NCBI GenBank assembly: GCA_964547945.1
Contig: CAZJPL010000001.1
Span: 345 to 64,344, forward strand
Length of the DNA stretch: 64,000 nucleotides
Direction: 5' to 3'
From: an uncultured Anaeroplasmataceae bacterium
GTDB taxonomy: Bacteria; Bacillota_I; Bacilli_A; Acholeplasmatales; Anaeroplasmataceae
Part shown: piece after piece, positions 11,583-44,131 of the stretch
Numbering within the stretch: the first letter of the stretch is position 1
Layout of the letters: each line of letters opens with the position of its first letter
Program-made: the position numbers and the translations under genes
Notes under the pieces: generated by a model
Database searches by the model: none
Told to the model about the DNA's origin: nothing
The model's input: the letters and a program-made list of their open reading frames with translations, nothing else

Positions 11583-11657
11583 TGGCAGGACTAACTGGAT
11601 TCGAACCAGTGAATGAGGGAGTCAAAGTCCCTTGCCTTACCGCTTGGCTATAGTCCT
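11583..11657 (-). tRNA. tRNA-Gln (anticodon UUG), CCA encoded
   Basis: Cloverleaf folded by hand: acceptor AGGACTA/TAGTCCT, anticodon stem AGGGA/TCCCT with loop CTTTGAC, T-arm ACTGG-TTCGAAT-CCAGT, 3' GCCA. Confidence 0.9.
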
Positions 11658-15362: not shown

Positions 15363-17222
15363 TTAATTATCATATTTATAAATTAAAGTAAAGGTATTTA
15401 TAGTTACTCTTGGTTGAGTACCATAAACTACTATAGCAACATAACCCGTTTTAGTTTCATCAAAGGTATAACTAATAGTTCCGTAAGTATCAACAGTACT
15501 ATCTATACCTAATTCCGTTACTTTTTCATAGGTTATATCATCACTTGAATATAAAATAGCTGCCCCAGATATGTTAGCATAAACTCTACCTATATCTAGC
15601 TCTATGCTATATAAATCTTCAACCTTAAATACTAATACCGAGTACTTAGTCCAACTATCTACATTATACTTAATATCTACATCAGCATTATAATTGTTAT
15701 TATTAGCTCCTATTATAAAACCACTCATAGTACTATAGTTAGAAGCATAGAATTCAACTCCATCAATTGTTACAGTAGCCCCAGTACTTGAATAACTTGT
15801 TCCTGTAGATGGGAAGTTACTATATAAATCATAAGTAACACTTTCATAACCTAATAATTTATTATATTCAGCTATCTTACTAGTTAATAAATCATAGTTA
15901 GTAATCTTAGTCTTATCAGCAGCTGATAAAGCTTCATATCTAGCTGATAATTCATCTAATAAATCTTTATCATCTAAAGTAATAGTTTTATCTCTTAATG
16001 TTTCAATATCAGTAATTAAATCACTTACTGTAGTATCTACTTCAGTATCAACAGATTCAACTATAGATAATACATTTTCTTCAGTTACTCCTAGTTCTTC
16101 ACTTTCTTCTGTATATAAATAATATACAAATTCAGGATGATCTATATAAGGATTTCTATTACCTTGATATGAATAAACTACTTCATTACGATATATTTCT
16201 TCTTCAGATACAGGATCTTCATAATGCCATTTTACTAAAGTATCTAACATACCTAGTACTGGACTTCCACTACTATAATTACCTGAATTATCTAGAGTTA
16301 AAGTTAATTCACTATCACTATATCTAGTAACCATGTAAAATAACATTCTAGCTACATCACCTTTAACTTCATCTCTAGGTTCAAATACAATACTAGTCCA
16401 TGAATTACCATATGAATCAGTATTAGTAGGGTTATCTATTTCATCAAAATAACTATTACTTCTACTACTATTAATATTCTTTTCACTAGCTCTTAAATGA
16501 TGAGCATCTGAATAAGCTGTATATGATTCACTATCAAATCCATATGATTTAGCCCATACATGTTCTCTATTCCATACTACACTGCTACTTGAACTACCAT
16601 CTCTAGCATCCTTATCAATGGCAATACCTGTATAAAGACAAGTTATATGATCTTCATCATATGCATCAGATTCTTGTAGTACTGTCCATACTTCAGAATA
16701 TGATAATTCATAAGTATGAGTAGATACTATAATCTCGTTTAATACTTCGAAGAAATTATCAAAATTACCAGTTAAATCACTGTAATATCCAGTATATGTT
16801 ACTTCACTTGGAATAGTTGTATCTCCACTAGTAGTTGTCCCACCTTCATTACCTGAACTAGATGAAGATAAAGCTAATACAACAACATCAAAATCAGTAT
16901 ATCTATTATTGTTGTTATAAGTAATACTAGCTTCTAAAGATACACTTACAGCAGATTCAGTTTGTGTTACTTTAGCTGTACTACCACTAATAACAATAGC
17001 ACTATTATCACTTTCCCAAGTAACATCTACTGTATATGTTTCATAAGTAACTGATATTGTCAAAGTAAAGTCTTCACTAACCTCACTAGGTATATCAAAT
17101 TCCTCTACTAATTTAATTAATTCATCAGCTATTTCACTAGATGATATAACTTCAGTATTATTACATCCAGTTAAGCCAATAAATACTAATATAAATAAAA
17201 TAAATGTATAAATCTTTTTCAT
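15363..17222 (-). CDS. endonuclease I family extracellular nuclease lipoprotein
   Basis: Lipobox LTGC|NN; endonuclease I motifs NREHVWAKS, DAHHLRASEKNINSSRSNSYF, GDVARMLFYM, NRNPYIDHPE; extra N- and C-terminal beta-rich modules. Confidence 0.85.
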   Translation of the reverse strand: MKKIYTFILFILVFIGLTGCNNTEVISSSEIADELIKLVEEFDIPSEVSEDFTLTISVTYETYTVDVTWESDNSAIVISGSTAKVTQTESAVSVSLEASITYNNNNRYTDFDVVVLALSSSSSGNEGGTTTSGDTTIPSEVTYTGYYSDLTGNFDNFFEVLNEIIVSTHTYELSYSEVWTVLQESDAYDEDHITCLYTGIAIDKDARDGSSSSSVVWNREHVWAKSYGFDSESYTAYSDAHHLRASEKNINSSRSNSYFDEIDNPTNTDSYGNSWTSIVFEPRDEVKGDVARMLFYMVTRYSDSELTLTLDNSGNYSSGSPVLGMLDTLVKWHYEDPVSEEEIYRNEVVYSYQGNRNPYIDHPEFVYYLYTEESEELGVTEENVLSIVESVDTEVDTTVSDLITDIETLRDKTITLDDKDLLDELSARYEALSAADKTKITNYDLLTSKIAEYNKLLGYESVTYDLYSNFPSTGTSYSSTGATVTIDGVEFYASNYSTMSGFIIGANNNNYNADVDIKYNVDSWTKYSVLVFKVEDLYSIELDIGRVYANISGAAILYSSDDITYEKVTELGIDSTVDTYGTISYTFDETKTGYVAIVVYGTQPRVTINTFTLIYKYDN

Positions 17223-17245
17223 TTATAGCTCCTTATTATAAAAAC

Positions 17246-17277
17246 AAGGAAAGAGAGTTGTTTTTCTCCCTTTCCTT
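17246..17277 (-). terminator. terminator/attenuator after the 826-aa lipoprotein gene
   Basis: AAGGAAAGGGAG-loop-CTCTCTTTCCTT followed by GTTTTTAT on the minus strand. Confidence 0.7.
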
Positions 17278-17295
17278 TATTGTTTTTCTCAAATA

Positions 17296-19776
17296 TTATT
17301 CAGCAAAATAAACATTAATGCTTGTAATATAACAACGAGCATTTTCTGTACTTGCACATTGAATAGTAAATGAAGTAATTCCTTCAGCATATTCTATAGT
17401 GTATGTAGTAGGAGTATCAGAAGATGTTAGAAGTTCATCAGAACCAGTTACTGATAATGACGCTTCATAAGAAGTACTATGAGAATAGAAGGTAATTTCT
17501 ATACTAGCAATTGTTGCCCCCCCAGATACTGTAAAAGTCATTGAGGTACCATTACCATCAGAAACGTTTAAATTTGGATATAACCTTAATACTCCTTCTG
17601 TTGTAGCAAATACAGTTGAAGATCCAGAGTTTTGAGCTGTCGTAACAGTCCAAACTTCAGAGTCTAAATTAACTGAGCTAGCATAATTAACGCTTGCATC
17701 ACTTAAATTTCCGTTAGATGCAACGGTGGCTTTTATAACAGCATCTGCATCTGATACGTTTTCGTCTTCAGAACCTTCTTCGCTATCTCCAGGTTCAGCT
17801 TCAGCCACTAACACGATATCACTTTCTGAAAGTGGACAAATTTCATATATTTTGCTTGAATTATACCAAGTATAATAACCAGAAACAGTATAAGTATTTC
17901 CTACAACAAATAATTGACTAGGTGTGAAACTGCTATAAATTGTAGAATCTTTATATATAGTTATTTCATTATCGCCAACTGTAAGAACTACTGAAGAGCT
18001 AGAAACTGATTTTACAACACCAGTAACAGAAACATATCCACCTTGATATGTGTCAGTATCTACACCACTAGAAACTGCTTCTGTAATATCAGTAGCTGTT
18101 GGAAAATTATTTCCTACACTTACTACTGTAACAGTATCAATACTTGTAGGGACAATTTCATGTACATTATTATAAATAGCTTTTGTTCCGCTTATAGTTA
18201 ATTCGTTACCAACTACGAATTTACTTTCAAATTCTGTTTGATCAACTCCATACCAATATACATAGTAACCACCAACAGAATCGCTTGTTAAATAAGCATA
18301 ACAATATGAACTTCTACATCCTACTGCGTATACTATACCAGTAACAGTAATTGAATCGCCATCTTCAGCATTATAATATGTATCATATTCAGATGAATAT
18401 TCTTTAAGAGAGAATGTAAATTCAATAGTGTCTGTAGCTGTTCCTAAATCATCATCACTTACAGTAATAGTTGCTTTTAAAGTAACAACTACTTCATCTG
18501 ATGGATAATCTACTATAGTTAATACATTGCCTTCTGTGCTTACATATTCACTATCAGCTGACCATTCTACAGTTACTCTTGAATCATCAGATTGATATAA
18601 TGAAACTGCTTCATATTCACTAGTTTTTGTAATAACTGAAGGAATTGAAGTTGCAGAATTTAACTTCATTGTTTCAGTATAAAGAACAGATTCTGCTGTT
18701 TCTTCTACTTTAGTAATAGTAAGATCATCAGTATCTACTAATACAACTTGCCATGTACCATTATAGTTAGTTAAGTAACCTTTAACATCAATTATATCAT
18801 TGATTGTTAATTCATTAGATGTAAGATAATCACTTACTTCTTGGAAGTATGCTAATTTAGTTGCTGATGAAGTACTTTCAAATAAATATGAATTTAAAGC
18901 AACAGTAAATGTCTTACCACCTAATTCAGCAGTAATAATAGTTTGAGTTGAACCAGATACACTAACTCCTGATACACTTGTAACAGTCGCTCCTGTTAAT
19001 TCAACATACATACCTGTTTTATATAATAATATGTCGCCATAATCATCAGTATTATCATTTATAAAATCTTCATTTAAATTATAAGCACCTTGATCTACAT
19101 ATGCTGTTAAATCAGATTCTATAGTGATTGAAGCACCTGAACCAATTTGATGACCTTGATTATAAACATCTTTTGAACCAGAAATAGTAATAGCTGTACC
19201 AACTGATAATGAATCATATACATCTTGAGAAGCTGATGCTCTAAATGCATAGAAACCACCTAAATAATTTGAATCAGTCATATATAAACAGAAATTACTA
19301 TAGCTTGCACTATATTCACCTAAATAAGTAATATAACCAGTGATACTTACTGATGAACCTGATGCAGCATCATAGAAGTTAGTAACTACTTCTTGAGGAT
19401 CTACTGCAGCTGTTATTTTTACTCTAAATTGTTTAGTAGCTGTTTCTTTATTGTATGTCAATGTAGCTGTAAAATAAGCTCTTACATCATCTTCTTGACG
19501 ATTAACAACAGCTGTATAAGTTCCATCACTATTAGCAGTGAAAGATATATAATCTTCAGATCCTTCATCAGCTGCCCAAGTAACAGTAGCAGTAGCACTA
19601 CCTGCTGTTATAGAACCAGGAACAGTAAAGTTCGCTGCTACTTCTTGACCATCTTCAGTTAGTATTAATCTACTAATAAGATCTTCTGCTGTATAGTCAT
19701 CACTACATGATGCTAAAGTGAAAACCCCAAGTAATACCAAAGCTAAAGCTGTGAATAACTTTGTAATTTTTTTCAT
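17296..19776 (-). CDS. large surface lipoprotein with an internally duplicated Ig-like + OB-like module array (putative nucleic-acid binding)
   Basis: Lipobox LASC|SD. Two copies of the unit [Ig-like ...VTW..D...; barrel 1 ITGYITYLG...TISGSKDVYNQGHQI / VTGIVYAVG...TISGTKAIYNNVHEI; barrel 2 ...VKGYLTNYNGTWQVV / ...VSGYYTWYNSSKIYEI]. Confidence 0.6.
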   Translation of the reverse strand: MKKITKLFTALALVLLGVFTLASCSDDYTAEDLISRLILTEDGQEVAANFTVPGSITAGSATATVTWAADEGSEDYISFTANSDGTYTAVVNRQEDDVRAYFTATLTYNKETATKQFRVKITAAVDPQEVVTNFYDAASGSSVSITGYITYLGEYSASYSNFCLYMTDSNYLGGFYAFRASASQDVYDSLSVGTAITISGSKDVYNQGHQIGSGASITIESDLTAYVDQGAYNLNEDFINDNTDDYGDILLYKTGMYVELTGATVTSVSGVSVSGSTQTIITAELGGKTFTVALNSYLFESTSSATKLAYFQEVSDYLTSNELTINDIIDVKGYLTNYNGTWQVVLVDTDDLTITKVEETAESVLYTETMKLNSATSIPSVITKTSEYEAVSLYQSDDSRVTVEWSADSEYVSTEGNVLTIVDYPSDEVVVTLKATITVSDDDLGTATDTIEFTFSLKEYSSEYDTYYNAEDGDSITVTGIVYAVGCRSSYCYAYLTSDSVGGYYVYWYGVDQTEFESKFVVGNELTISGTKAIYNNVHEIVPTSIDTVTVVSVGNNFPTATDITEAVSSGVDTDTYQGGYVSVTGVVKSVSSSSVVLTVGDNEITIYKDSTIYSSFTPSQLFVVGNTYTVSGYYTWYNSSKIYEICPLSESDIVLVAEAEPGDSEEGSEDENVSDADAVIKATVASNGNLSDASVNYASSVNLDSEVWTVTTAQNSGSSTVFATTEGVLRLYPNLNVSDGNGTSMTFTVSGGATIASIEITFYSHSTSYEASLSVTGSDELLTSSDTPTTYTIEYAEGITSFTIQCASTENARCYITSINVYFAE

Positions 19777-19805
19777 TTTATTCTCCTTGTTTTTTGTATT
19801 TATGA

Positions 19806-21011
19806 TTAAGAAACTATCTTTAATTCACTAAAATTATTAACTACGAAACTAATCTCCATATCGCTAGAACTTGTTCCGTTTACATTAAATCCAAACACAG
19901 AAATTTCATGACCAATATAATCTTGGATATTAATTTCTTCTGTTATTTCAACAGTAAATGTAACATATACTATGCCAGCACTTTCTTGATTTATTCTATA
20001 AGTAGTACCAGTGAATGTATAAGTTGTTCCATCATTTGTAACATCTGTTACAGTAATATTTTCAAAAGCAAAACTAGGTTTAGAAACATTTGAACCCATA
20101 CCAAAGGTTAAATAATAACCTGCTGTTACTATTGATGATGAGTAGGTTACAGTTGAACCATATTGAACACCTGAAATTTGCCAATTACCATAATATTGCT
20201 GAACAGTTCCTACAACAATAACTCTATTACCTTGATTTTTCAAGATAGCTGCTGAGGTATTGTGTAAGTAAACAGTAATACTATAATATTCACCATCAAT
20301 ATAATCAGTTAAAGTTATATAGGAATTATCATAGTAATCAGAAATATAACCTTCTACAGAAACCATCATGTTAACTAGGTCTTCTATATTTTCAAGTAAA
20401 GATTTTACATCATAACTAGTTGGAGTGTCTGAGAATAATGGATCATCTTCATCAGACCAAATATGTAATGAATTATTTTTAGCATATGTTTGAGCTTCTG
20501 CAAAATAATCAGCATATTTTCCTTGACCAACTGCTGTACTTTCTGAATAACCATTTTGAACTAATTCAAGGTTAAGATTACGATATTCAGCATCTTCACT
20601 TGATTTATACCATACATAGCCTAAATAACGACCATAAGAATCTGTACGAGAACCACTTGCAGGTTCATATTCTAATACTATGCTAACAGCACTTTCTAAT
20701 TTTTCTTTAGTAAAATTAGAAGCTGCTAAACCCCATTTTTCAACATCGCCAGTAGATTCTGGGGTGTCAATACCATAGAATCTAAGTGTGACAGTCCCCG
20801 CAGAATCTGAAAATCTAGCTGTATCGCCATCAGTTACTGACAATAAAGTCACTTCACCGATGCCGTCATTTATAAAAGATAAACCTTCAAAATCACTTTC
20901 TAATTTTAAAGTACCTGTAACATCATCTGTTGTAGATGAACAACTTGTTAAACCTAATGCACCACTAAATAAAATGACAAGACAAACTAACCATTTTATT
21001 GTTTTTCTCAT
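19806..21011 (-). CDS. staphylococcal-nuclease (SNase/thermonuclease) domain lipoprotein with C-terminal OB-like module
   Basis: Lipobox LTSC|SS; SNase motifs VTDGDTARF, LRFYGIDTPES, DSYGRYLGYVWY, LNLELVQNGYS. Confidence 0.88.
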   Translation of the reverse strand: MRKTIKWLVCLVILFSGALGLTSCSSTTDDVTGTLKLESDFEGLSFINDGIGEVTLLSVTDGDTARFSDSAGTVTLRFYGIDTPESTGDVEKWGLAASNFTKEKLESAVSIVLEYEPASGSRTDSYGRYLGYVWYKSSEDAEYRNLNLELVQNGYSESTAVGQGKYADYFAEAQTYAKNNSLHIWSDEDDPLFSDTPTSYDVKSLLENIEDLVNMMVSVEGYISDYYDNSYITLTDYIDGEYYSITVYLHNTSAAILKNQGNRVIVVGTVQQYYGNWQISGVQYGSTVTYSSSIVTAGYYLTFGMGSNVSKPSFAFENITVTDVTNDGTTYTFTGTTYRINQESAGIVYVTFTVEITEEINIQDYIGHEISVFGFNVNGTSSSDMEISFVVNNFSELKIVS

Positions 21012-21017
21012 AATTAC

Positions 21018-22421
21018 CTAGAATGTACATTCATCGTATGCATCTTGTAATGCATCTTTTGGATCAGTTCCATTTAATACATACACTAAAGCATAACCGA
21101 TTTGTGTACGTGCAGTATTTGAACCACTGAATGCAGGAGATACGAAGTACATATCATAATTTTCTAATGCGAAATTAATTGTTTGAGCAATTAAATCATC
21201 TGATGATGATAACCATTCACTATAAGGAACTGCTACACCTTCAGAATCTTCTATAGTAACTGAAGTAACATCTTGAGCACTTAATCTAACAGGAATATAA
21301 CCAGATTGTGCTGAGAATTCAGCTTGGAATTCTGGTTCTAATAACATTTTTACAAATTCCCAAGTTGCTCTTTCTTTATCATCATCACCTTGGTCTAACA
21401 TAACAAGAGAAGGACCTTGGTTAATTGATTTAGGATTAGTAGGATCTACTTGTGGAATTGATGTAACTCCAACTTCAAAATCATCAGAATCTTGATAGCT
21501 TGCACCAGCTGAAGAACCAATTGAGAATACACATGATTCTATAGTATATACATAATCACTCGCTGATGAATTTGTAGTTTGTCTAGATACTGTAAATAAG
21601 TTAGATGTATAAGAACCATAAATATCTTGAACAGTATATAAACCTTGATCAAAATATTCTTTTAATGTAGTAAGTAAACCTGCAACATCATCATTATTGA
21701 ATAAATAATATGGTGATTCAGATGAAGTATAATCATAACCATATTGTTCACATAAAGTTATCATCCAGTTATCAACACTATCATAACCCATTGGAACCCA
21801 TTCTGAATAAACACTATTTTTAATTTTAGAGCATACATCCCAGAATGTTTCCCAAGTCCAGTTATCTATATCATCAACTGTTTCTTGATCTAAAACGCCT
21901 CTTTCTACTAAATCTTCTAATGCATCAATATTGTAATACATAACTTCTGTTGATTTAGAGAAAGGAACTGTATACATACCATCTTCAATTGAAGAACCAC
22001 CAAAAGCTTCATAACCTTCAGCCCAATAACCTTCAATAAAATCAGCTATTTCTTCATCAGTATAACCAATTTCATCATCAAGAATGAACTCACTTAAATC
22101 AACAACTACATTTGCTTCTAAATATTCAGCAACGTGATCTGGATAGCAATATGCTAAATCAGGTAAATTACCTGTAGCTAAATCAGCAATAACTGCTTCT
22201 TTAACGCCATCATAACCACCACTTATTACAGTTACATCAACTTGATAATCATCATGAGTTGAATTAAACTCTTCTGCTACTGCTTCAAGCAATGGTGATA
22301 AACTTGTACCTGCTGAAGTATAGAAGGTAATCGTATTATCTGATGAAGATCCACATGAAGCAAGTGAAAAAACTCCCAAACCAGCTAATACCAAAGAAGT
22401 AAACAATTTTGAATGTTTCAT
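21018..22421 (-). CDS. ABC transporter substrate-binding lipoprotein (solute-binding family 1, CUT1-type)
   Basis: Lipobox LASC|GSS; family-1 SBP pattern; directly downstream of the MalFG-type permease genes. Confidence 0.85.
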   Translation of the reverse strand: MKHSKLFTSLVLAGLGVFSLASCGSSSDNTITFYTSAGTSLSPLLEAVAEEFNSTHDDYQVDVTVISGGYDGVKEAVIADLATGNLPDLAYCYPDHVAEYLEANVVVDLSEFILDDEIGYTDEEIADFIEGYWAEGYEAFGGSSIEDGMYTVPFSKSTEVMYYNIDALEDLVERGVLDQETVDDIDNWTWETFWDVCSKIKNSVYSEWVPMGYDSVDNWMITLCEQYGYDYTSSESPYYLFNNDDVAGLLTTLKEYFDQGLYTVQDIYGSYTSNLFTVSRQTTNSSASDYVYTIESCVFSIGSSAGASYQDSDDFEVGVTSIPQVDPTNPKSINQGPSLVMLDQGDDDKERATWEFVKMLLEPEFQAEFSAQSGYIPVRLSAQDVTSVTIEDSEGVAVPYSEWLSSSDDLIAQTINFALENYDMYFVSPAFSGSNTARTQIGYALVYVLNGTDPKDALQDAYDECTF

Positions 22422-22478
22422 ATTTTCTCCTTTTATTTTTTGTTTAAATATATGTAATAAACTAGCTTATGCTAGATA

Positions 22479-23405
22479 TTACCCCTTAATACCACTTCTA
22501 GATACGCCACGCATAATATATTTTCTAAAACAGAAGAATAATATTAATAGTGGAATAGTTGTAATAACTGAAGCCGCCATTCTAATAGGGACAACAATAT
22601 TACTACTATCACCAGAAGCAGGATAACCACTTGAACTCATCCAGTTAGAAATAAGCTGATATGCTTTATTCTTATTAACTAATTGAGGCCAAATGTATGA
22701 GTTCCATACACCTATAATCTTTAATAATAAGATTGATATTAAAGTAGGTGAAGCTAAAGGAACCATAACTTTAAATAAATATTTAAAATCAGACACACCA
22801 TCTATTTTAGCTGCTTTATATAATTCATCAGGAACTTGTTTAAAAGTATTCCTTAATAAATAGATATAATAAACACTAATCATAAATGGTAAGATTAAAG
22901 CTGTTAAAGTATTTCTTAAATTCATATCTGATATAGTAACAAAGTTAGTGATTGTATATAATTCACCAGGAATCATCATTGTTGCTAATAACAAAGTGAA
23001 TAGTAAATTTTTTCCTTTAAACTCTAATCTAGCAAATGCATAAGCTGTAAATATTGTAACTAATAATCCAAGGCCTGTAGAAGTTATAGCAACTAATATT
23101 GTATTAACAATAGCTGTTGAAAATGAACCTCCACCAGAGCTTGTATAAGTAAACGCATCAACATAATTTGACCACTGCAATGTTTCAGGAATCATATCTG
23201 TTATTTCAGTAAATGTACGATATTCTAAATCAGTCATAAGCGATGATAAAATCATGAATATGAATGGGAATACTGAACAAATTGCACATATAGTCAAAAT
23301 TATATATAAAACTGTTTGAGCTGTAATATGTGCAGCTAAACTTTTACGTTTTGTTCTTTTGACTTGAGTTTGATAAGATGTTTGATTAACTGTCGCTTGC
23401 ATCAT
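22479..23405 (-). CDS. carbohydrate-type ABC transporter permease (MalG/UgpE-like)
   Basis: Six TM segments; EAA loop ELYKAAKIDGVSDFKYLFKVMVPLASP. Confidence 0.9.
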   Translation of the reverse strand: MMQATVNQTSYQTQVKRTKRKSLAAHITAQTVLYIILTICAICSVFPFIFMILSSLMTDLEYRTFTEITDMIPETLQWSNYVDAFTYTSSGGGSFSTAIVNTILVAITSTGLGLLVTIFTAYAFARLEFKGKNLLFTLLLATMMIPGELYTITNFVTISDMNLRNTLTALILPFMISVYYIYLLRNTFKQVPDELYKAAKIDGVSDFKYLFKVMVPLASPTLISILLLKIIGVWNSYIWPQLVNKNKAYQLISNWMSSSGYPASGDSSNIVVPIRMAASVITTIPLLILFFCFRKYIMRGVSRSGIKG

Positions 23406-23413
23406 ATCACCTC

Positions 23414-24421
23414 TTAATAATGAACTGTCTTCTTACTAATCCATTGATTAATAAGAGTAAAGACTAAAATAATTCCAAATAGTATTAAAGCACCAGCAGA
23501 TGCTAGACCTAATCTACTATCTTCTAACATATCGTAGATGAAACCAACTATAGTATTCATCTCACCATTTATTTGACCCATATTAGTACCAAAGATACCT
23601 ACGATTGATGTATATTCTTTAAATCCACCAATGAAACCTGTTACTACTAAATAAGATAAAATTGGTGAAATTAAAGGAACAGTAACATGCATCATAGTTC
23701 TAAATTGACTAGCTCCATCTATCTTAGCTGCTTCATAATATTGTTTATTAACACTTTGAAGAGCTGAGAAGATAATCAATATCTTAAATGGTAATGCTGC
23801 CCAAATAGAATATAAGATAACTACAGTACGAGCAGCCCAATCAGAAGCTGAAGTATTAACCCATACTATAGGGTCTATTCCAAAGAAACTTAATAATGTA
23901 TTAACAAAACCAATAGATGTAGCACCTTCAATAGTTCCACTCGAACTAACTACATTAAACATGGCCGAGAAAACAGCACCGATAGCTAAAGCGTTTGTTA
24001 AATATGGTAAGAAAAATACTGTTTGATATACTTTTTGTAACCATTTAATTGAATTTAGCCACACAGAAATTAACAAGGCTAAAATTGTTGAAATAGGTAC
24101 TGATATAAAAGCAAATAACAGTGTATTTATTAAGCATGTTTGAAAATTGCCATAAGAAATAACTTTAGTAAAGTTAGCAATTCCCCAACCATCAAATGCT
24201 TTAGTTGTAGATTTATAATCTTCCATAAATGCTGTAATACATGTTTTGATGATAGGATATACAGTAAATAATCCTATAAACACTAAAGCAGGAATTAAAT
24301 ATAAATAACCTTTATTATGTTCAAAAGCTTTTCTAATTCTAACTTTTAAAGGTTTTTTATCAAATGGACTTTTTTCAACCACTAAGGCTTCATCTTGAAC
24401 AACAATGTTTTCTTGTTCCAT
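23414..24421 (-). CDS. carbohydrate-type ABC transporter permease (MalF/UgpA-like)
   Basis: EAA loop YYEAAKIDGASQFRTMMHVTVPLISP. Confidence 0.9.
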   Translation of the reverse strand: MEQENIVVQDEALVVEKSPFDKKPLKVRIRKAFEHNKGYLYLIPALVFIGLFTVYPIIKTCITAFMEDYKSTTKAFDGWGIANFTKVISYGNFQTCLINTLLFAFISVPISTILALLISVWLNSIKWLQKVYQTVFFLPYLTNALAIGAVFSAMFNVVSSSGTIEGATSIGFVNTLLSFFGIDPIVWVNTSASDWAARTVVILYSIWAALPFKILIIFSALQSVNKQYYEAAKIDGASQFRTMMHVTVPLISPILSYLVVTGFIGGFKEYTSIVGIFGTNMGQINGEMNTIVGFIYDMLEDSRLGLASAGALILFGIILVFTLINQWISKKTVHY

Positions 24422-25488
24422 TATCTAAGCCTCTCTTCCGTTTCGGCATCAAATAGCAAGACTTTTTGAGGCCTTAAGTTGAATTTAATCTCTCCTTCTG
24501 ATGGCATATTTGTTAAAGAATCAACTATAGATCTAATAGTAGGTTTAGTACTTTCAGGATGTTTAGATACGATAGTAATATCTCTACCCATTACTTCTAA
24601 GTGATCAATATTAGTAGTAAATACACCATTAGGATCAACAACAAATCCTTCAGGACGAATGCCAACAAATATATCTCTATCTTCTAGATGAGTATCCATA
24701 ATTTTTTCTTCACCTATATATACTCCACCATCTTTAATTACACCTTTAAATATATTAATTGGAGGAGTTCCTAAGAAGTTAGCAACGAATAAATTAACTG
24801 GATCATCATATACTTCTTGAGGTTTACCAACTTGTTGCATAACACCTAATTTCATAACTACAATGAAATCAGAAATAGACATAGCTTCTTCTTGGTCATG
24901 AGTAACGAAAATAGTTGTTACTCCGGTTTCTCTTTGAATTCTCTTAATTTCTTCCCTTGTTTGTAGACGTAATCTAGCATCTAAGTTAGATAATGGTTCA
25001 TCTAATAATAAAACATTAGGGTCTTTTACTAAAGCTCTTGCGATAGCTACTCTTTGTTGTTGACCACCAGATAATTCACTAGGTTTACGATCCATCAATT
25101 GTTCGATTTGAACTATCTTAGCAGCTTGGAAAGCTTTAACAGCAGCTTCCTTTTTAGGAACTCTAGCACTTTCTAATGGGAATAAAATATTTTTCGCAAC
25201 TGTCATATGTGGATATAACGCATAGTTTTGGAAAACCATTCCTATTCCTCTTTTTTCAGCGGCTAAATCTGTTACATCAGCATCATCAAAATAAATATGA
25301 CCAGATGTAGGTTCTTGCAAACCAGCAATCATATATAGAGTAGTTGATTTACCACAACCTGAAGGTCCTAATAAACCAATTAATTGACCATCTGGAATTT
25401 CAATGGTCAAATCATCTACTGCTCTAACTTCGCTTTTTTGCTTTTTGTTAGTAAAAATCTTAGTTAAGTTTTCAAGTACAACTTTCAT
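24421..25488 (-). CDS. ABC transporter ATP-binding protein (MalK/UgpC/MsmX-like)
   Basis: GPSGCGKST, LSGGQQQRVAIARAL, LLLDEPLSNLD plus a MalK-type C-terminal regulatory domain. Start ATG 25488 after GGAGGA. Confidence 0.93.
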   Translation of the reverse strand: MKVVLENLTKIFTNKKQKSEVRAVDDLTIEIPDGQLIGLLGPSGCGKSTTLYMIAGLQEPTSGHIYFDDADVTDLAAEKRGIGMVFQNYALYPHMTVAKNILFPLESARVPKKEAAVKAFQAAKIVQIEQLMDRKPSELSGGQQQRVAIARALVKDPNVLLLDEPLSNLDARLRLQTREEIKRIQRETGVTTIFVTHDQEEAMSISDFIVVMKLGVMQQVGKPQEVYDDPVNLFVANFLGTPPINIFKGVIKDGGVYIGEEKIMDTHLEDRDIFVGIRPEGFVVDPNGVFTTNIDHLEVMGRDITIVSKHPESTKPTIRSIVDSLTNMPSEGEIKFNLRPQKVLLFDAETEERLR

Positions 25489-25585
25489 AAATCCTCCAAC
25501 TGAGTACAAAACTTATTCAAAATAATTTTATCATAAACAACTATTACAATAAAGTTTTTTATAAATCTTTACAAAAAATTTACAT

Positions 25586-26965: not shown

Positions 26966-27215
26966 TCTAAATCTCCTCAGTTATATAAATTTCTATATAA
27001 GGACGAATCAAATCCGCGGTACCACCTTATTTCTAGATAGTTTATATATCTAGCTCTCAAATCTGTTAACGCCAGAAATCGGATAGTTCTACTTTGTTTA
27101 TTTTCCTCTACCAGTTATGAAGATGTTGTCCGATAATCTCTTTTGTTTGTTTTCACCAACCACAAACTCTCTTAAAAAATCAATTATCTTTCTTCTTCAC
27201 ATTACTTTATTATGC
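26966..27215 (-). promoter_or_regulatory. T-box leader (Asn specifier AAC) upstream of asnS
   Basis: Minus strand has the AG bulge AGAGAG, distal loop GGTTGGTGAAA, specifier context GGACAACATC (AAC at 27125-27127) and the T-box AAGGTGGTACCGCGG (core 27014-27026). Promoter TAGACA, 17 nt, TATCAT. Confidence 0.85.
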
Positions 27216-39846: not shown

Positions 39847-41142
39847 CTATAAAAACATAGCCATGTATAGTGGTAATGTTAAAATATTATTTGAATACCC
39901 GACATTACCATATACTAATTTAATACCTTCCATATCTTTATTTTCTTTTAATATGGTAGATAGTGATTTGGCTTTATTATTAGCTTTTACTTCAATTGGC
40001 GTTATTTTTCCATTTTTAGATAATACAAAATTTAATTCTAATGTATTCTTTCTATTATAAAAATATAATTTATTACCTTGAGAATATAATACTTGAGCTA
40101 TTATATTTTCAAATATAGCTCCTTTATATATTCCTAAGTTACCTTCTATAATTTGAACATTAGTTCCTTCATCAAGCATAGCGACTAATAACCCAGTATC
40201 TGCTATATATAATTTAAAATAATCGTCTTCCTTATATCCTATTAAAGGTAATTCTAAATTAGATACATTATTACATATATTAACTATTCCAGCATCAATT
40301 AACCAATTAATACTACCAGCATACTTATCTCTTCTGCCATTCTTATCAAACTGCTTATACATAAATTTCTTATTATCTTTAGCTAATTGAGCTGGTATAC
40401 TTTCAAAACAAGCTCTAGCCTTTACTTTTTTTGTAGATATAGCATATTTAGCTATATCATTTTTATAATCAATCAATATATTTTTTTGAATATTTAATAC
40501 TTCTTCATAATTATGATTATTTATAAAGGTATTAACTACATTAGGCATACCACCAATTACTATATATTGTTTAAAATATTCTAATATTTTATTATTCATA
40601 GCTTCATTTACTAATTTTTTATTAAGATAACATTCTCTTAGTATAGAAATAACATTATCATCAATATGATTAGCCCATAAAAACTCTTTGAAACTAAGTG
40701 GATGCATATCTAAAAATTCTACATATCCAGTAGGATATGAAGATACTTCTTCATAATTTATTCCTAAAAGAGAACCAGAAGCTATTACATCATATCTTTT
40801 ATCTATCGCAAAAAACTTTAAAGCAGTTCTAGCATTAGGGCATAACTGTATTTCATCAAGAAATATAAGTGTTTTATAAGGTACTAAAGATAATGATTCC
40901 TTAGGGACATATAAAGATATATTAGCTAAAATAGTATTAATATCTAAATCACCATCAAATATCTTTTTAGCAGTAGGATTTTCTACAAAATTAATACTTA
41001 TAAAATTTTCATAATTTTCCCTACCAAATTTCTCTACTATATAAGTTTTACCTACTTGTCTCGCACCGCTTATAATAAGACATTTTTTATCACTTTTACT
41101 TTTCCATTCTATTAATTTATCTTCTATTTCTCTTTTTAACAT
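39847..41142 (-). CDS. AAA+ ATPase of the AAA_14/DUF4143 family
   Basis: Walker A ISGARQVGKTY, Walker B IFLDEIQ, DUF4143-like C-terminal half. Start ATG 41142 after GAGGTG. Confidence 0.85.
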   Translation of the reverse strand: MLKREIEDKLIEWKSKSDKKCLIISGARQVGKTYIVEKFGRENYENFISINFVENPTAKKIFDGDLDINTILANISLYVPKESLSLVPYKTLIFLDEIQLCPNARTALKFFAIDKRYDVIASGSLLGINYEEVSSYPTGYVEFLDMHPLSFKEFLWANHIDDNVISILRECYLNKKLVNEAMNNKILEYFKQYIVIGGMPNVVNTFINNHNYEEVLNIQKNILIDYKNDIAKYAISTKKVKARACFESIPAQLAKDNKKFMYKQFDKNGRRDKYAGSINWLIDAGIVNICNNVSNLELPLIGYKEDDYFKLYIADTGLLVAMLDEGTNVQIIEGNLGIYKGAIFENIIAQVLYSQGNKLYFYNRKNTLELNFVLSKNGKITPIEVKANNKAKSLSTILKENKDMEGIKLVYGNVGYSNNILTLPLYMAMFL

Positions 41143-41303
41143 ACGATCACCTCGCATCTTAATTTTACTAATAAAAATAGATAAGTCAATATAAATCGCA
41201 TTTTTTCGTATGAATTATAATACTTTTATAACACTTTCTCCTATGAATGTTATTATAGTAATGACACTTTTTGTTATTTTATATAAAATTATTTAAAATA
41301 AAA

Positions 41304-41331
41304 ACAGATAGCAAGATGACTTACTACCTGT
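41304..41331 (-). terminator. terminator after the pfl genes
   Basis: ACAGGTAG...CTATCTGT followed by TTTTTATTTT on the minus strand. Confidence 0.7.
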
Positions 41332-41346
41332 TAATTTATTATTTAA

Positions 41347-41577
41347 TTACATTGATTCATGGATTGTTCTACTGATAACATCATCTTGTTGTTCTTTTGT
41401 TAATTTGATGAAGTTAACAGCATAACCTGATACTCTTATAGTTAATTGAGGATATTTTTCTGGATGTTTTTGAGCATCTAATAAGGTATCACGGTTAAAT
41501 ACATTAACATTTAAATGATATCCTCCATCGCCTACATAGGCATCTAACATTTGAACTAAATTATCTACTCTTGACAT
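41347..41577 (-). CDS. stand-alone glycyl-radical domain (C-terminal module of pyruvate formate-lyase, GrcA/YfiD-like)
   Basis: ...[36 protein letters not shown]..., which carries the glycyl radical motif RVSGYAV. Own ATG with GGAGGAG 3 nt (GGAGG core 5 nt) upstream. Confidence 0.9.
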
Positions 41578-41586
41578 ATTCTCCTC

Positions 41587-43620
41587 CTATTCGTCATCTT
41601 TACCAAGAGATTGTGGTGTTACAGAGAAAGTATTAGAAATACCATCTCTTGAATATTCATATGGCAATTTAGCTACTGATTCTAATGAAGCTAAGGCACC
41701 ATGTGTATCACGACCATGCATTGGGTTAGCACCTGGAGCTAAAGGTTCACCAGCTTTTCTACCATCTGGTGTATTACCTGTCTTTTTACCATAAACTACA
41801 TTTGAAGTAATAGTTAAAATAGACATTGTAGCTTCAGATTCACGATAAGTATAATGTTTTTTAATCTTATTCATGAATGTTTTTACTAACCATACAGCTA
41901 TTTCATCTACTCTATCATCATTATTACCATATTTAGGGAAGTCTCCTTCAGTTTTAAAATCAGTAATTAAACCAAATTCATTTCTAATAGGATAAACCTT
42001 AGCATATTTAATAGCTGATAATGAGTCAACAGCACAAGATAGACCTGCAATACCAGTAGCAAAGAATCTATGAACATTAGTATCATGTAAAGCCATTTCT
42101 AAAGCTTCATATGAATATTTATCATGCATATAATGGATTAAGTTTAATGTATTAACATATAAACCTGCTAACCATTCCATCATTTGTTCATATTTTTCTA
42201 CTACTTCTTCATAAACTAAAACATCATCACTAGTGATACTTTCATATTTAGGTGATACTTGAAGAGGTTTTTTAGTAACTTTATCTAAAGTTAACTCATC
42301 TCTACCACCATTTAAAGCATATAATAAACATTTAGCTAAGTTAGCTCTTGCTCCAAAGAATTGCATATCTTTACCAACACGCATTGAAGATACACAACAA
42401 GCTATACAGTAATCATCCCCCATTTCAGGACGCATTAAATCATCTGATTCATATTGGATAGCTGATGTTTTAATAGACATCTTTGCACAATATCTTTTAA
42501 AGTTCATTGGTAAGTTTTTAGACCATAAAACAGTTAAGTTTGGTTCTGGAGCTGGTCCTAGATTATCTAGAGTATGAAGTATTCTAAAAGATGTTTTTGT
42601 TACTAAACTTCTACCATCAACACCCATACCACCAATAGATTCAGTTACCCAAGTAGGATCTCCTGAAAATAATTCATTGTATTCTTTAATACGCATGAAT
42701 TTAACTATTCTTAATTTCATTACGAAATGATCTATTAATTCTTGAGCTTCTTCTTCAGTAATAATACCAGCTTTAAGATCACGTTCAATATAGATATCTA
42801 AGAATGTAGTATTTCTACCTATAGACATCGCTGCCCCGTTTTGATCTTTAACAGCGGCTAAATAACCAAAATATAAAGCTTGAATAGCTTCTTTAGCGTT
42901 AGTTGCAGGTTCTGAAATATCACAACCATATGAACTAGCCATTTCTTTTAATTGTTTTAAAGCTTTAATTTGTTCAGCTAATTCTTCTCTATCTCTAATG
43001 CGATCAGGACGCATTTCACCATCAATTAAACTCTTATCTAATTCTTTATGTCTAATTAAATAATCTACGCCATATAAGGCAACTCTACGGTAATCTCCAA
43101 CTATTCTACCTCTACCATAAGTATCAGGTAAACCAGTTAAGATATGAGCTGTTCTCGCTCTTCTCATTTCAGGAGTATATGCATCATAAACACCATCATT
43201 ATGGGTTTTACGATATTTAGTAAATATTTCTTTTACTCTATCAGTAACTTGATAGTCATACATTCCAGCTGCCTGAACAGCCATTTTAATACCACCAAAT
43301 GGTTGTAAGCTTCTTTTAAATGGTTTATCTGTTTGTAAACCAACTATTTTTTCTAGTTTTTTATCTAAATATCCTGGCGCATGACTAGTAATAGTAGATA
43401 CGATATCAGTATCAGCATCTAATACACCGCCAGCTTCTCTTTCTTTTTTAGATAGGTCTAATACTATATCCCATAATTTAGTAGTAGCGGTTGTTGGTCC
43501 TACTAAAAAAGATTCATCTCCATCATATGGATTATAATTTCTTTGGATGAAATCTCTAACATTAATTTCATCATTACTCCATTTACCGGGAACAAATCCT
43601 TCCCATCCCTTATATGTCAT
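41587..43620 (-). CDS. pflB: pyruvate formate-lyase, catalytic core (lacks the glycyl-radical C-terminus)
   Basis: Active-site CIACCVS (Cys-Cys) and collinear PflB-like sequence by eye, ending ...SLGKDDE then TAG. Confidence 0.93.
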
Positions 43621-43684
43621 ATTTTCACTTCTTTCTTTAAAATCGTTATGATAATATCAAATTGTCTATATCTTTTCAAGTTTT

Positions 43685-44131
43685 TTACTCATTTTCTAAG
43701 ATATCTAATAATTTATCAATTTCGTTTTCAGAAAAACAAATTATATTATTTTCTCTTAATAATCTAGTAGTTATACCACTACCTTTTATAACTTTACTAG
43801 AAAATGAGCCATCATATATAATATTTATCCCACAAGAAGGACTTTTTTCTTTTAATATTGCGTATTTAATATTATTTTCTTTAGCTATATTTAAGGCTTT
43901 ATTTGCCCCTAAATAAAAGTTATTTGTAAGATCTATATTATCTTTATTAACAACTTTATTACCTCTTATTTCACTAGGAGATCTAGGTATACTTAAATTA
44001 CCCATAACTTCAGGACAAATAGGTATAAGCTCATATTTTTCTTTTAGTTTTAAAACTAAATTATTTAAATTATTTTTACCATTATATTTAACATTATTAC
44101 CTAGTAGACAAGAACTAACTAATATCTTCAT
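43685..44131 (-). CDS. DUF523 (TudS-like) family protein
   Basis: MKILVSSCLLG..V.Y.G....; CPEV...PR.P.E pattern. Confidence 0.75.
   Translation of the reverse strand: MKILVSSCLLGNNVKYNGKNNLNNLVLKLKEKYELIPICPEVMGNLSIPRSPSEIRGNKVVNKDNIDLTNNFYLGANKALNIAKENNIKYAILKEKSPSCGINIIYDGSFSSKVIKGSGITTRLLRENNIICFSENEIDKLLDILENE

Follow-up and report, generated by a model that had tools for sequence, protein, structure and literature searches.

A split pyruvate formate-lyase locus in an uncultured Anaeroplasmataceae bacterium: a candidate two-gene operon for a heteromeric glycyl radical enzyme

Introduction

Pyruvate formate-lyase (PFL) is the textbook glycyl radical enzyme and a main route by which gut fermenters convert pyruvate to acetyl-CoA and formate. 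Here we describe a PFL locus from an uncultured Anaeroplasmataceae bacterium (GenBank assembly GCA_964547945.1, contig CAZJPL010000001.1, positions 345 to 64,344 of the forward strand; this stretch of 64,000 nucleotides is referred to throughout as the window) in which the PFL sequence is divided between two neighbouring open reading frames (ORFs), one of 677 amino acids (aa) corresponding to the body of the enzyme and termed here the core, and one of 76 aa carrying the glycyl radical loop and termed here the small subunit. From the comparisons below we consider it probable, at roughly 0.85, that the locus is a two-gene operon for a functional heteromeric PFL.

The described systems closest to this locus are single-chain PFL, the stand-alone radical domain proteins and an engineered pair made from the two. 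Single-chain PflB of Escherichia coli (PDB 1H16 and 2PFL; family TIGR01255) is a polypeptide of about 760 aa in which barrel and radical domain are joined. GrcA/YfiD of E. coli and Y06I of phage T4 (TIGR04365; PDB 6OWR) are small stand-alone proteins consisting in part of a glycyl radical loop together with a helix at the C-terminus. PFL-AE can install the radical on free YfiD, and YfiD complements oxygen-cleaved PFL (PMC8683613; PMC13450708), recognizing the damaged enzyme by means of its N-terminal 60 residues (PMC8683613). In the engineered pair, truncated E. coli PFL, tPFL(1-695), together with YfiD has wild-type activity once activated (PMC8683613, Andorfer et al. 2021). A 2026 review of glycyl radical enzymes treats PFL as a single chain and gives YfiD and Y06I as the only trans-acting radical domains (PMC13450708), and for Ca. 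Mycoplasma girerdii a PFL, an activase and an 'autonomous glycyl radical cofactor' are merely listed as co-occurring (PMC5476646). Our full-text literature search found no paper describing a natural split PFL.

Two database entries come closer. The NCBIfam family NF038360 (rad_fix_GrcA3, a 78-position model) is named 'autonomous glycyl radical cofactor GrcA3', a name that implies a repair part and gives no hint of a truncated PFL gene. PDB chains 38la_A (687 aa) and 38lb_A (739 aa), both labelled 'Formate acetyltransferase', are PFL chains that, like the core in the window, have no glycyl radical domain; 38la ends ...SLGKED, homologous to the end of the window core, and 38lb has a Cys-rich tail like that of the type-B cores described below. 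Their source organisms are different ones (both chains are about 73-78% identical to type-B loci), and they are missing from the Foldseek PDB library ending 2026-04-08, having probably been released later in 2026; a PDB search with the 76-aa query returned no small-subunit chain from either entry, and 38la may be either natural or truncated by engineering. The split architecture is common in databases and apparently already under study: annotators can see it, as evidently can at least one structural group, but within the range of our searches it is not described as an obligate two-subunit enzyme.

Results and discussion

Organization of the locus

The elements of the locus, all on the minus strand, are as follows.

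43651..43679, minus: promoter-like site TTGAAA, 17 nt, TG-TATTAT; putative operon promoter (consensus scan)
43620..41587, minus: predicted PFL catalytic core subunit, 677 aa, with TAG stop at 41589-41587 (ORF list and sequence)
41578..41589, minus: junction, TAG plus 9-nt spacer GAGGAGAAT (from sequence)
41577..41347, minus: predicted glycyl radical subunit, 76 aa, containing RVSGYAV, with ATG at 41577-41575 and TAA stop at 41349-41347
41303..41332, minus: intrinsic-terminator-like hairpin plus T-run; putative end of the bicistronic operon (scan and sequence)
41157-39847, minus: AAA_14 plus DUF4143 ATPase gene, downstream neighbour (Pfam)

The order of ORF, TAG, 9-nt spacer and small ORF with the radical motif, all in one reading frame, is as given in a preliminary description of this DNA, and sequence and ORF list bear it out. 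So does the ribosome-binding site reported there as near-perfect: a Shine-Dalgarno sequence AGGAGG lies within TAGGAGGAG, leaving a gap of 5 nt from GGAGG to ATG, and overlaps the stop codon of the core gene, which suggests translational coupling and near-equimolar synthesis of the two products. An independent Logan assembly (run SRR7039263, contig L081) aligns to 1175 nt of the window at 99.7%, the only difference being one 3-nt gap (0 mismatches), and its TAG, spacer and ATG are those of the window.

The promoter-like site lies 30 nt upstream of the core ATG and makes 10/12 consensus matches with an extended −10, although it should be noted that this is weak evidence as the region contains no more such sites than expected from shuffling. 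The terminator-like hairpin (13 pairs) starts 15 nt past the stop of the small ORF and is the only terminator-like site in 41100-43900. Both operon signals are consensus matches only. Taken with the two ORFs between them they point to one bicistronic unit consisting of promoter-like site, core, small ORF and terminator-like hairpin. Upstream of the core the neighbouring gene encodes a 2-thiouracil desulfurase family protein (Pfam).

The two products together correspond to one PFL

In Pfam searches the core matches PFL-like (E 1.8e-211) and the first half of Gly_radical (profile 2-50 of 106), while the small ORF matches the second half of the latter (profile 53-106, E 1.2e-22), so that the cut falls within what Pfam counts as one domain. 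The same picture is given by TIGR01255 (formate C-acetyltransferase), for which the core alone reaches 1099.6 bits (cutoff 994.2) over profile positions 2-664 of 744 and the small ORF takes up positions 666-744. When core and small subunit are joined they are collinear with E. coli K-12 PflB (L092), with 65.5% identity over 743 columns; relative to PflB there is one extra residue at the junction, the initiator Met, and a 5-residue deletion further on. The cut lies between E. coli E679 (core end) and V680 (corresponding to Ser2 of the small subunit), E. coli residues following, here and below, the mature numbering of PDB 1H16. In E. coli K-12 the translated pflB passes through this point unbroken (...LGKDDEVRKTNLAGLMDGYF...), as the preliminary description had it. 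The small subunit is thus the equivalent of E. coli PflB 680-759 and the core of about 10-679. A PDB sequence search agrees, aligning the core to 1h16 residues 10-679 and the small subunit to 684-759, with residues 17-76 of the small subunit also aligning to YfiD (6owr) 68-127.

The residues expected of an active PFL can be placed by alignment on one or the other product.

E. coli R176, core R172: pyruvate-site residue
E. coli W333, core W324: pyruvate-site residue
E. coli C418/C419, core C408/C409: adjacent catalytic cysteines, the thiyl pair
E. coli F432, core F422: pyruvate-site residue
E. coli R435, core R425: pyruvate-site residue
E. coli G734, small-subunit G51: radical glycine, 25 residues before the C-terminus

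In contrast to PflB, the radical glycine is absent from the core and is carried with the last barrel strand on a separate 76-aa polypeptide (in the loop RVSG51YAV) with its own ribosome-binding site; in place of a single chain of about 760 aa with barrel and radical domain there is a stop and a separate start. Applied to the small subunit, the published PFL topology would give it helix 680-692, strand beta10, the glycine finger loop and the C-terminal helix (PMC8683613).

The small subunit resembles GrcA/YfiD in being a stand-alone radical loop with C-terminal helix, and its expected action, namely activation by PFL-AE and docking into a PFL body without an intact radical domain, is alike. It differs from YfiD in having no disordered 60-residue N-terminal half and in having the PFL helix 680-692 instead. 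Against TIGR04365 it reaches only 94.4 bits (cutoff 170), matching profile positions 66-126 alone, with 76 as opposed to 127 aa. With NF038360 it scores 156.8 bits over profile positions 4-78, against a cutoff of 158, while its relatives range from 154.8 to 168.4 (type-B small proteins 162-168, which pass; type-A 155-158), suggesting that it belongs to, or sits at the edge of, the GrcA3 family, formally 1.2 bits under the curated cutoff. The 'GrcA-like' module of the preliminary description therefore holds in so far as a stand-alone radical module with a GrcA3 match is meant, but not in the sense of an E. coli-type GrcA. In a further difference from GrcA/YfiD, the small gene directly follows a PFL gene natively without a radical domain, which would make its product an obligate subunit and not a repair part for oxygen-cleaved PFL. 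With the engineered pair the locus shares a PFL body without radical domain that is complemented in trans by a small radical domain protein; tPFL, however, is artificial and cut 16 residues downstream of the natural cut, whereas the cut in the window is natural and conserved and the partner is predicted to be co-transcribed and has the extra helix.

Conservation of the split among relatives

For the small ORF the 120 best database matches were taken (79-96% identity, all but one at least 89%). All 120 are free-standing proteins of 75-112 aa, 110 of them of 76-78 aa, and most come from gut metagenome-assembled genomes (MAGs) labelled Anaeroplasmataceae, Acholeplasmatales or Ca. Pelethenecus (Mollicutes); one match, P0077, is indexed in 4097 blocks of the assembly collection. 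The 120 best matches of the core (87-94% identity, plus the window's own protein) are likewise all of 675-730 aa, 118 of them of 675-685. The possibility raised in the preliminary description that close relatives have an uninterrupted gene is not what was found, as none of these 120 is about 755 aa.

GTDB species-representative genomes were then scanned with the small protein and the 80 best loci kept. The 63 non-redundant loci with a near-complete core, counting in the window, one locus each for the sister species and P0077, and the outgroup E. coli pflB, comprise 59 split and 4 single-chain cases; counting all loci that show the 3' end of the core, 68/72 are split, the four single-chain relatives being L028, L047, L063 and L070. 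Across the 68 split loci all three stops (TAA, TGA, TAG) occur at the end of the core, spacer length ranges from 2 to 982 nt and any frame is possible for the small ORF.

The split loci fall into two clades, types A and B, which were never mixed in 200 neighbour-joining (NJ) bootstraps. Type A, to which the window belongs, has a clean cut, with the core ending ...LGK[DE][DE][DE], and occurs in Mollicutes-like MAGs, Christensenellales-type MAGs and MAGs labelled only 'Clostridia'. In the 22 type-A loci the stop is TAA in 15, TGA in 4 and TAG in 3, the spacer is 2-296 nt (median 22) and the small ORF is in frame 0, 1 or 2 in 7, 5 and 10 cases. Type B is found in Ruminococcus, Lachnospiraceae, Oscillospiraceae, Collinsella, other Coriobacteriaceae, Gastranaerophilales and one spirochaete MAG, and its cores end in a tail of 10-36 aa (VFxGDLDID...), often with Cys motifs. 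An SD-like motif precedes the small ORF in 22/22 type-A and 43/46 type-B loci. It is therefore the SD and the ATG that are kept among orthologues, whereas stop codon, spacer and frame vary. As the frames among relatives are random, the shared frame in the window, which the preliminary description had stressed, is correct as an observation but due to chance and without meaning.

The nearest comparison is with a syntenic sister species (L088-L091), where the core is 94% identical and PFL is also split, within the gene order purA - desulfurase - ... - core - small - 305-aa membrane protein - UDG - TrmFO - XerC. The sister junction reads GACGAATAG, GAGGTAATATAAT, ATG, that is, with TAG as in the window but a 13-nt spacer that puts the small ORF in frame +1. 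In comparison with L088 the core has a ratio of non-synonymous to synonymous substitution rates (dN/dS, Nei-Gojobori) of 0.053 and the small ORF one of 0.014, dS being about 1 or more; ratios are quoted from sister-species and a few mid-distance pairs, the more distant pairs being saturated at synonymous sites. These values indicate that strong purifying selection has kept both parts coding since the two species diverged. Together with the survey above they argue that the split layout is conserved and under selection in many gut anaerobes, and is neither a mutation nor an error.

Three of the single-chain genes lie inside the split clades (L047 and L070 within type A in 200/200 NJ bootstraps, L063 within type B in the NJ tree), indicating repeated splitting or re-fusion.

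Alternative explanations

The preliminary description left open whether the TAG is a recent nonsense mutation or the mark of a genuine two-piece enzyme. If a single-chain pflB had been pseudogenized, SD and ATG would be fortuitous; the common frame of stop and small ORF in the window and the uninterrupted course of single-chain PFL through the cut point are what one would then expect. That all close relatives are split, in 68 non-redundant loci with differing stops, spacers and frames, that both parts show such low dN/dS values at high dS, and that the same junction recurs in an independent assembly make this explanation vanishingly improbable, and a systematic assembly artefact shared by all these sequences is excluded by the variability of the junctions. 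Nor does it seem other than highly improbable that the TAG is read through or recoded (by suppression, pyrrolysine-type decoding or another reassignment) to give one chain of 757 aa. Decoding of TAG in the window would indeed keep the frame and yield a full-length PFL, the retained Met being preceded by an insert of 4 residues (X-E-E-N), but the sister species, with its 13-nt spacer and frame +1, could not be so decoded, type-A frames are random and type-A stops mostly TAA, and relatives keep an SD and ATG ahead of the small ORF. Moreover all three stops are in use among 54 genes of the window (38 TAA, 9 TAG, 7 TGA) and TAG is an ordinary stop codon in this genome; recoding by pyrrolysine or another genetic code was accordingly rejected on stop usage and the frames of relatives. 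The varied stops, spacers and frames taken as a whole exclude recent nonsense mutation, sequencing error and programmed readthrough. As judged from these comparisons the TAG is real and the enzyme very probably functional, and the two-piece alternative of the preliminary description is the one that the comparative data support.

A further explanation accepts both genes as real but takes the 76-aa protein as a classical GrcA-like spare part for a separate full-length PFL, the truncated core being inactive or otherwise employed. The NCBI family name ('autonomous glycyl radical cofactor GrcA/GrcA3', 'rad_fix') speaks for it, and our survey of PFL genes covered the 64-kb window of the genome, leaving room for such an enzyme. 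The core nevertheless keeps every catalytic residue at a dN/dS of 0.053 and needs a radical domain in trans. The small gene is linked to a core gene in 68/68 split loci, in direct contact in type A, and in many type-B loci a third small ORF sits between the two. Moreover the start of the small protein matches the end of the core exactly, with neither overlap nor loss, and this protein does not have the N-terminal 60 residues by which YfiD recognizes damaged PFL (PMC8683613). We therefore regard the spare-part explanation as unlikely.

Proposed mechanism and its weak points

As the core cannot itself generate or hold a glycyl radical and yet is conserved, the small subunit would supply the radical in trans in the heteromeric enzyme that we favour. 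The core would provide the barrel, the Cys408/Cys409 thiyl pair and the pyruvate and CoA sites, and the small subunit the last barrel strand, the finger loop with Gly51 and the C-terminal helix. A PFL activase encoded elsewhere in the genome would abstract hydrogen from Gly51 of the small subunit, either free or loosely docked, after which the small subunit would insert into the core, placing the Gly radical next to Cys409 for catalysis as in ordinary PFL. Should oxygen cleave the chain at the radical glycine only the 76-aa piece would need replacing, and such cheap replacement could be a selective advantage for gut anaerobes meeting transient oxygen. Assembly of the subunits, activation in trans and replaceability are what we infer by analogy with the E. 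coli proteins.

Several points weigh against this reading. No activase gene, pflA, was found near the locus: in the 64-kb window no ORF of at least 100 aa has the motif CxxxCxxC and there is no tblastn match with 51 PflA sequences from related loci, and pflA was also not found within 10 kb in the sister species, so that its presence in the rest of this genome is only assumed. The analogy with the engineered pair cuts both ways, as truncated E. coli PFL binds YfiD weakly and is less well activated (PMC8683613), and efficient assembly of the natural pair is thus not guaranteed; helix 680-692 on the small subunit may give an affinity absent from the artificial pair. An AlphaFold2 model of the core (from an 18-sequence alignment of 87-100% identity) had a pLDDT of 46 and was unusable, so no structural claim is made; Foldseek with this model recovered E. 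coli PFL by sequence only. The literature search found no protein-level, electron paramagnetic resonance or activity data for any split PFL. Also to be counted here are the restriction of the PFL gene survey to the window, as discussed above, and the standing of the replaceability advantage as a hypothesis.

The activase result agrees with the preliminary description, which had noted that no pflA is adjacent and that a DUF4143 ATPase gene comes next, and motif search, tblastn and Pfam confirm both statements. Most type-A relatives have pflA directly upstream in the order pflA-core-small (e.g. L082, with a 2-nt spacer), and in type-B relatives it usually comes after the small gene; its absence near PFL in both the window and the sister species suggests that this lineage has moved pflA. 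The missing neighbouring pflA and the DUF4143 gene are thus best described, from gene order, as local rearrangements of the lineage lying outside the PFL system.

On a wider view we lean towards regarding split PFL as a major architecture naturally taken in gut anaerobes (Mollicutes-like lineages, Clostridia, Coriobacteriia, Gastranaerophilales and spirochaetes) by the most widespread glycyl radical enzyme, existing in at least two forms, A and B. The radical finger would here be an obligate subunit, made separately and open to exchange, in effect a spare part that comes built in. If this is true the 'GrcA' proteins of many anaerobes would be subunits and not repair parts. For annotation, a 'GrcA' beside a 'formate C-acetyltransferase' some 75 residues shorter than E. 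coli PflB would represent half of an enzyme; neither gene of such a pair should be taken for a pseudogene, and in metabolic reconstructions the two together should be entered as a single PFL. A natural co-transcribed pair would also serve the study of how the activase gains access to a buried glycine and of how the radical domain docks and exchanges, and would make it possible to test directly whether selection in anaerobes under transient oxygen favours cheap renewal of the oxygen-sensitive part.

Further observations on split loci

The third ORF of type-B loci, which is conserved and of 57-84 aa, occurs in the following.

L019, L021, L023, L024, L026, L030-L032, L036, L038-L043, L051-L053: third ORF between core and small gene
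L057, L059-L061, L065, L067, L076, L079 (continued): third ORF between core and small gene

It is covered by neither a Pfam nor an NCBIfam family. In its first half (VDDIVxMLDxxMxxGxGHxNV) it is similar to the corresponding half of the radical subunit (GrcA3 profile 2-27, E 9e-4); there is no glycine loop, and the second half has a Cys motif (C...AC.(V/Q)PT/N...). A similar Cys-rich segment is fused to the core C-terminus in other type-B loci. The product might act as a placeholder or chaperone, or as a metal- or redox-binding partner.

In the single-chain genes the codons at the junction are SD-like purine runs (e.g. TCC GAG GAG GAC, S-E-E-D, in L047), which could be a relic of re-fusion or simply an acidic linker. 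In L007 (CP091735.1, a complete MAG genome) the core ends ...LGKR-TGA owing to an extra A in an A-run (GGAAAAAGATGAAGACTAA as against GGAAAAGATGAAGACTAA in relatives), probably a homopolymer error of long-read assembly rather than biology.

The surroundings of the locus differ between window and sister species. The DUF4143 gene (window 39847-41157, minus) is absent from the same position in the sister species (L088 8511-9926), which has instead an Antibiotic_NAT acetyltransferase gene and an AlbA_2/Fic-like_C gene inserted just upstream of the PFL core. On this comparison both flanks of the PFL operon appear to be insertion-prone, the insertions being variable and unrelated to PFL.

Other features of the window

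Elsewhere in the window the following were noted.

26996-27211, minus: T-box leader (Rfam RF00230, 110 bits), upstream of a 459-aa gene at 26965-25586
11586-11657, minus: tRNA gene
15363-25509, minus: run of large lipoprotein-like genes after a putative ABC transporter operon (N-terminal sequence only)

The 459-aa gene looks, from its N-terminal sequence only, like an asparaginyl- or aspartyl-tRNA synthetase gene. The putative ABC transporter operon comprises one ATPase-like and two permease-like genes, and the lipoprotein-like products (401-826 aa) have N-terminal signal peptides with a lipobox-like Cys. Such runs of lipoprotein genes are typical of wall-less or Mollicutes-like gut bacteria.

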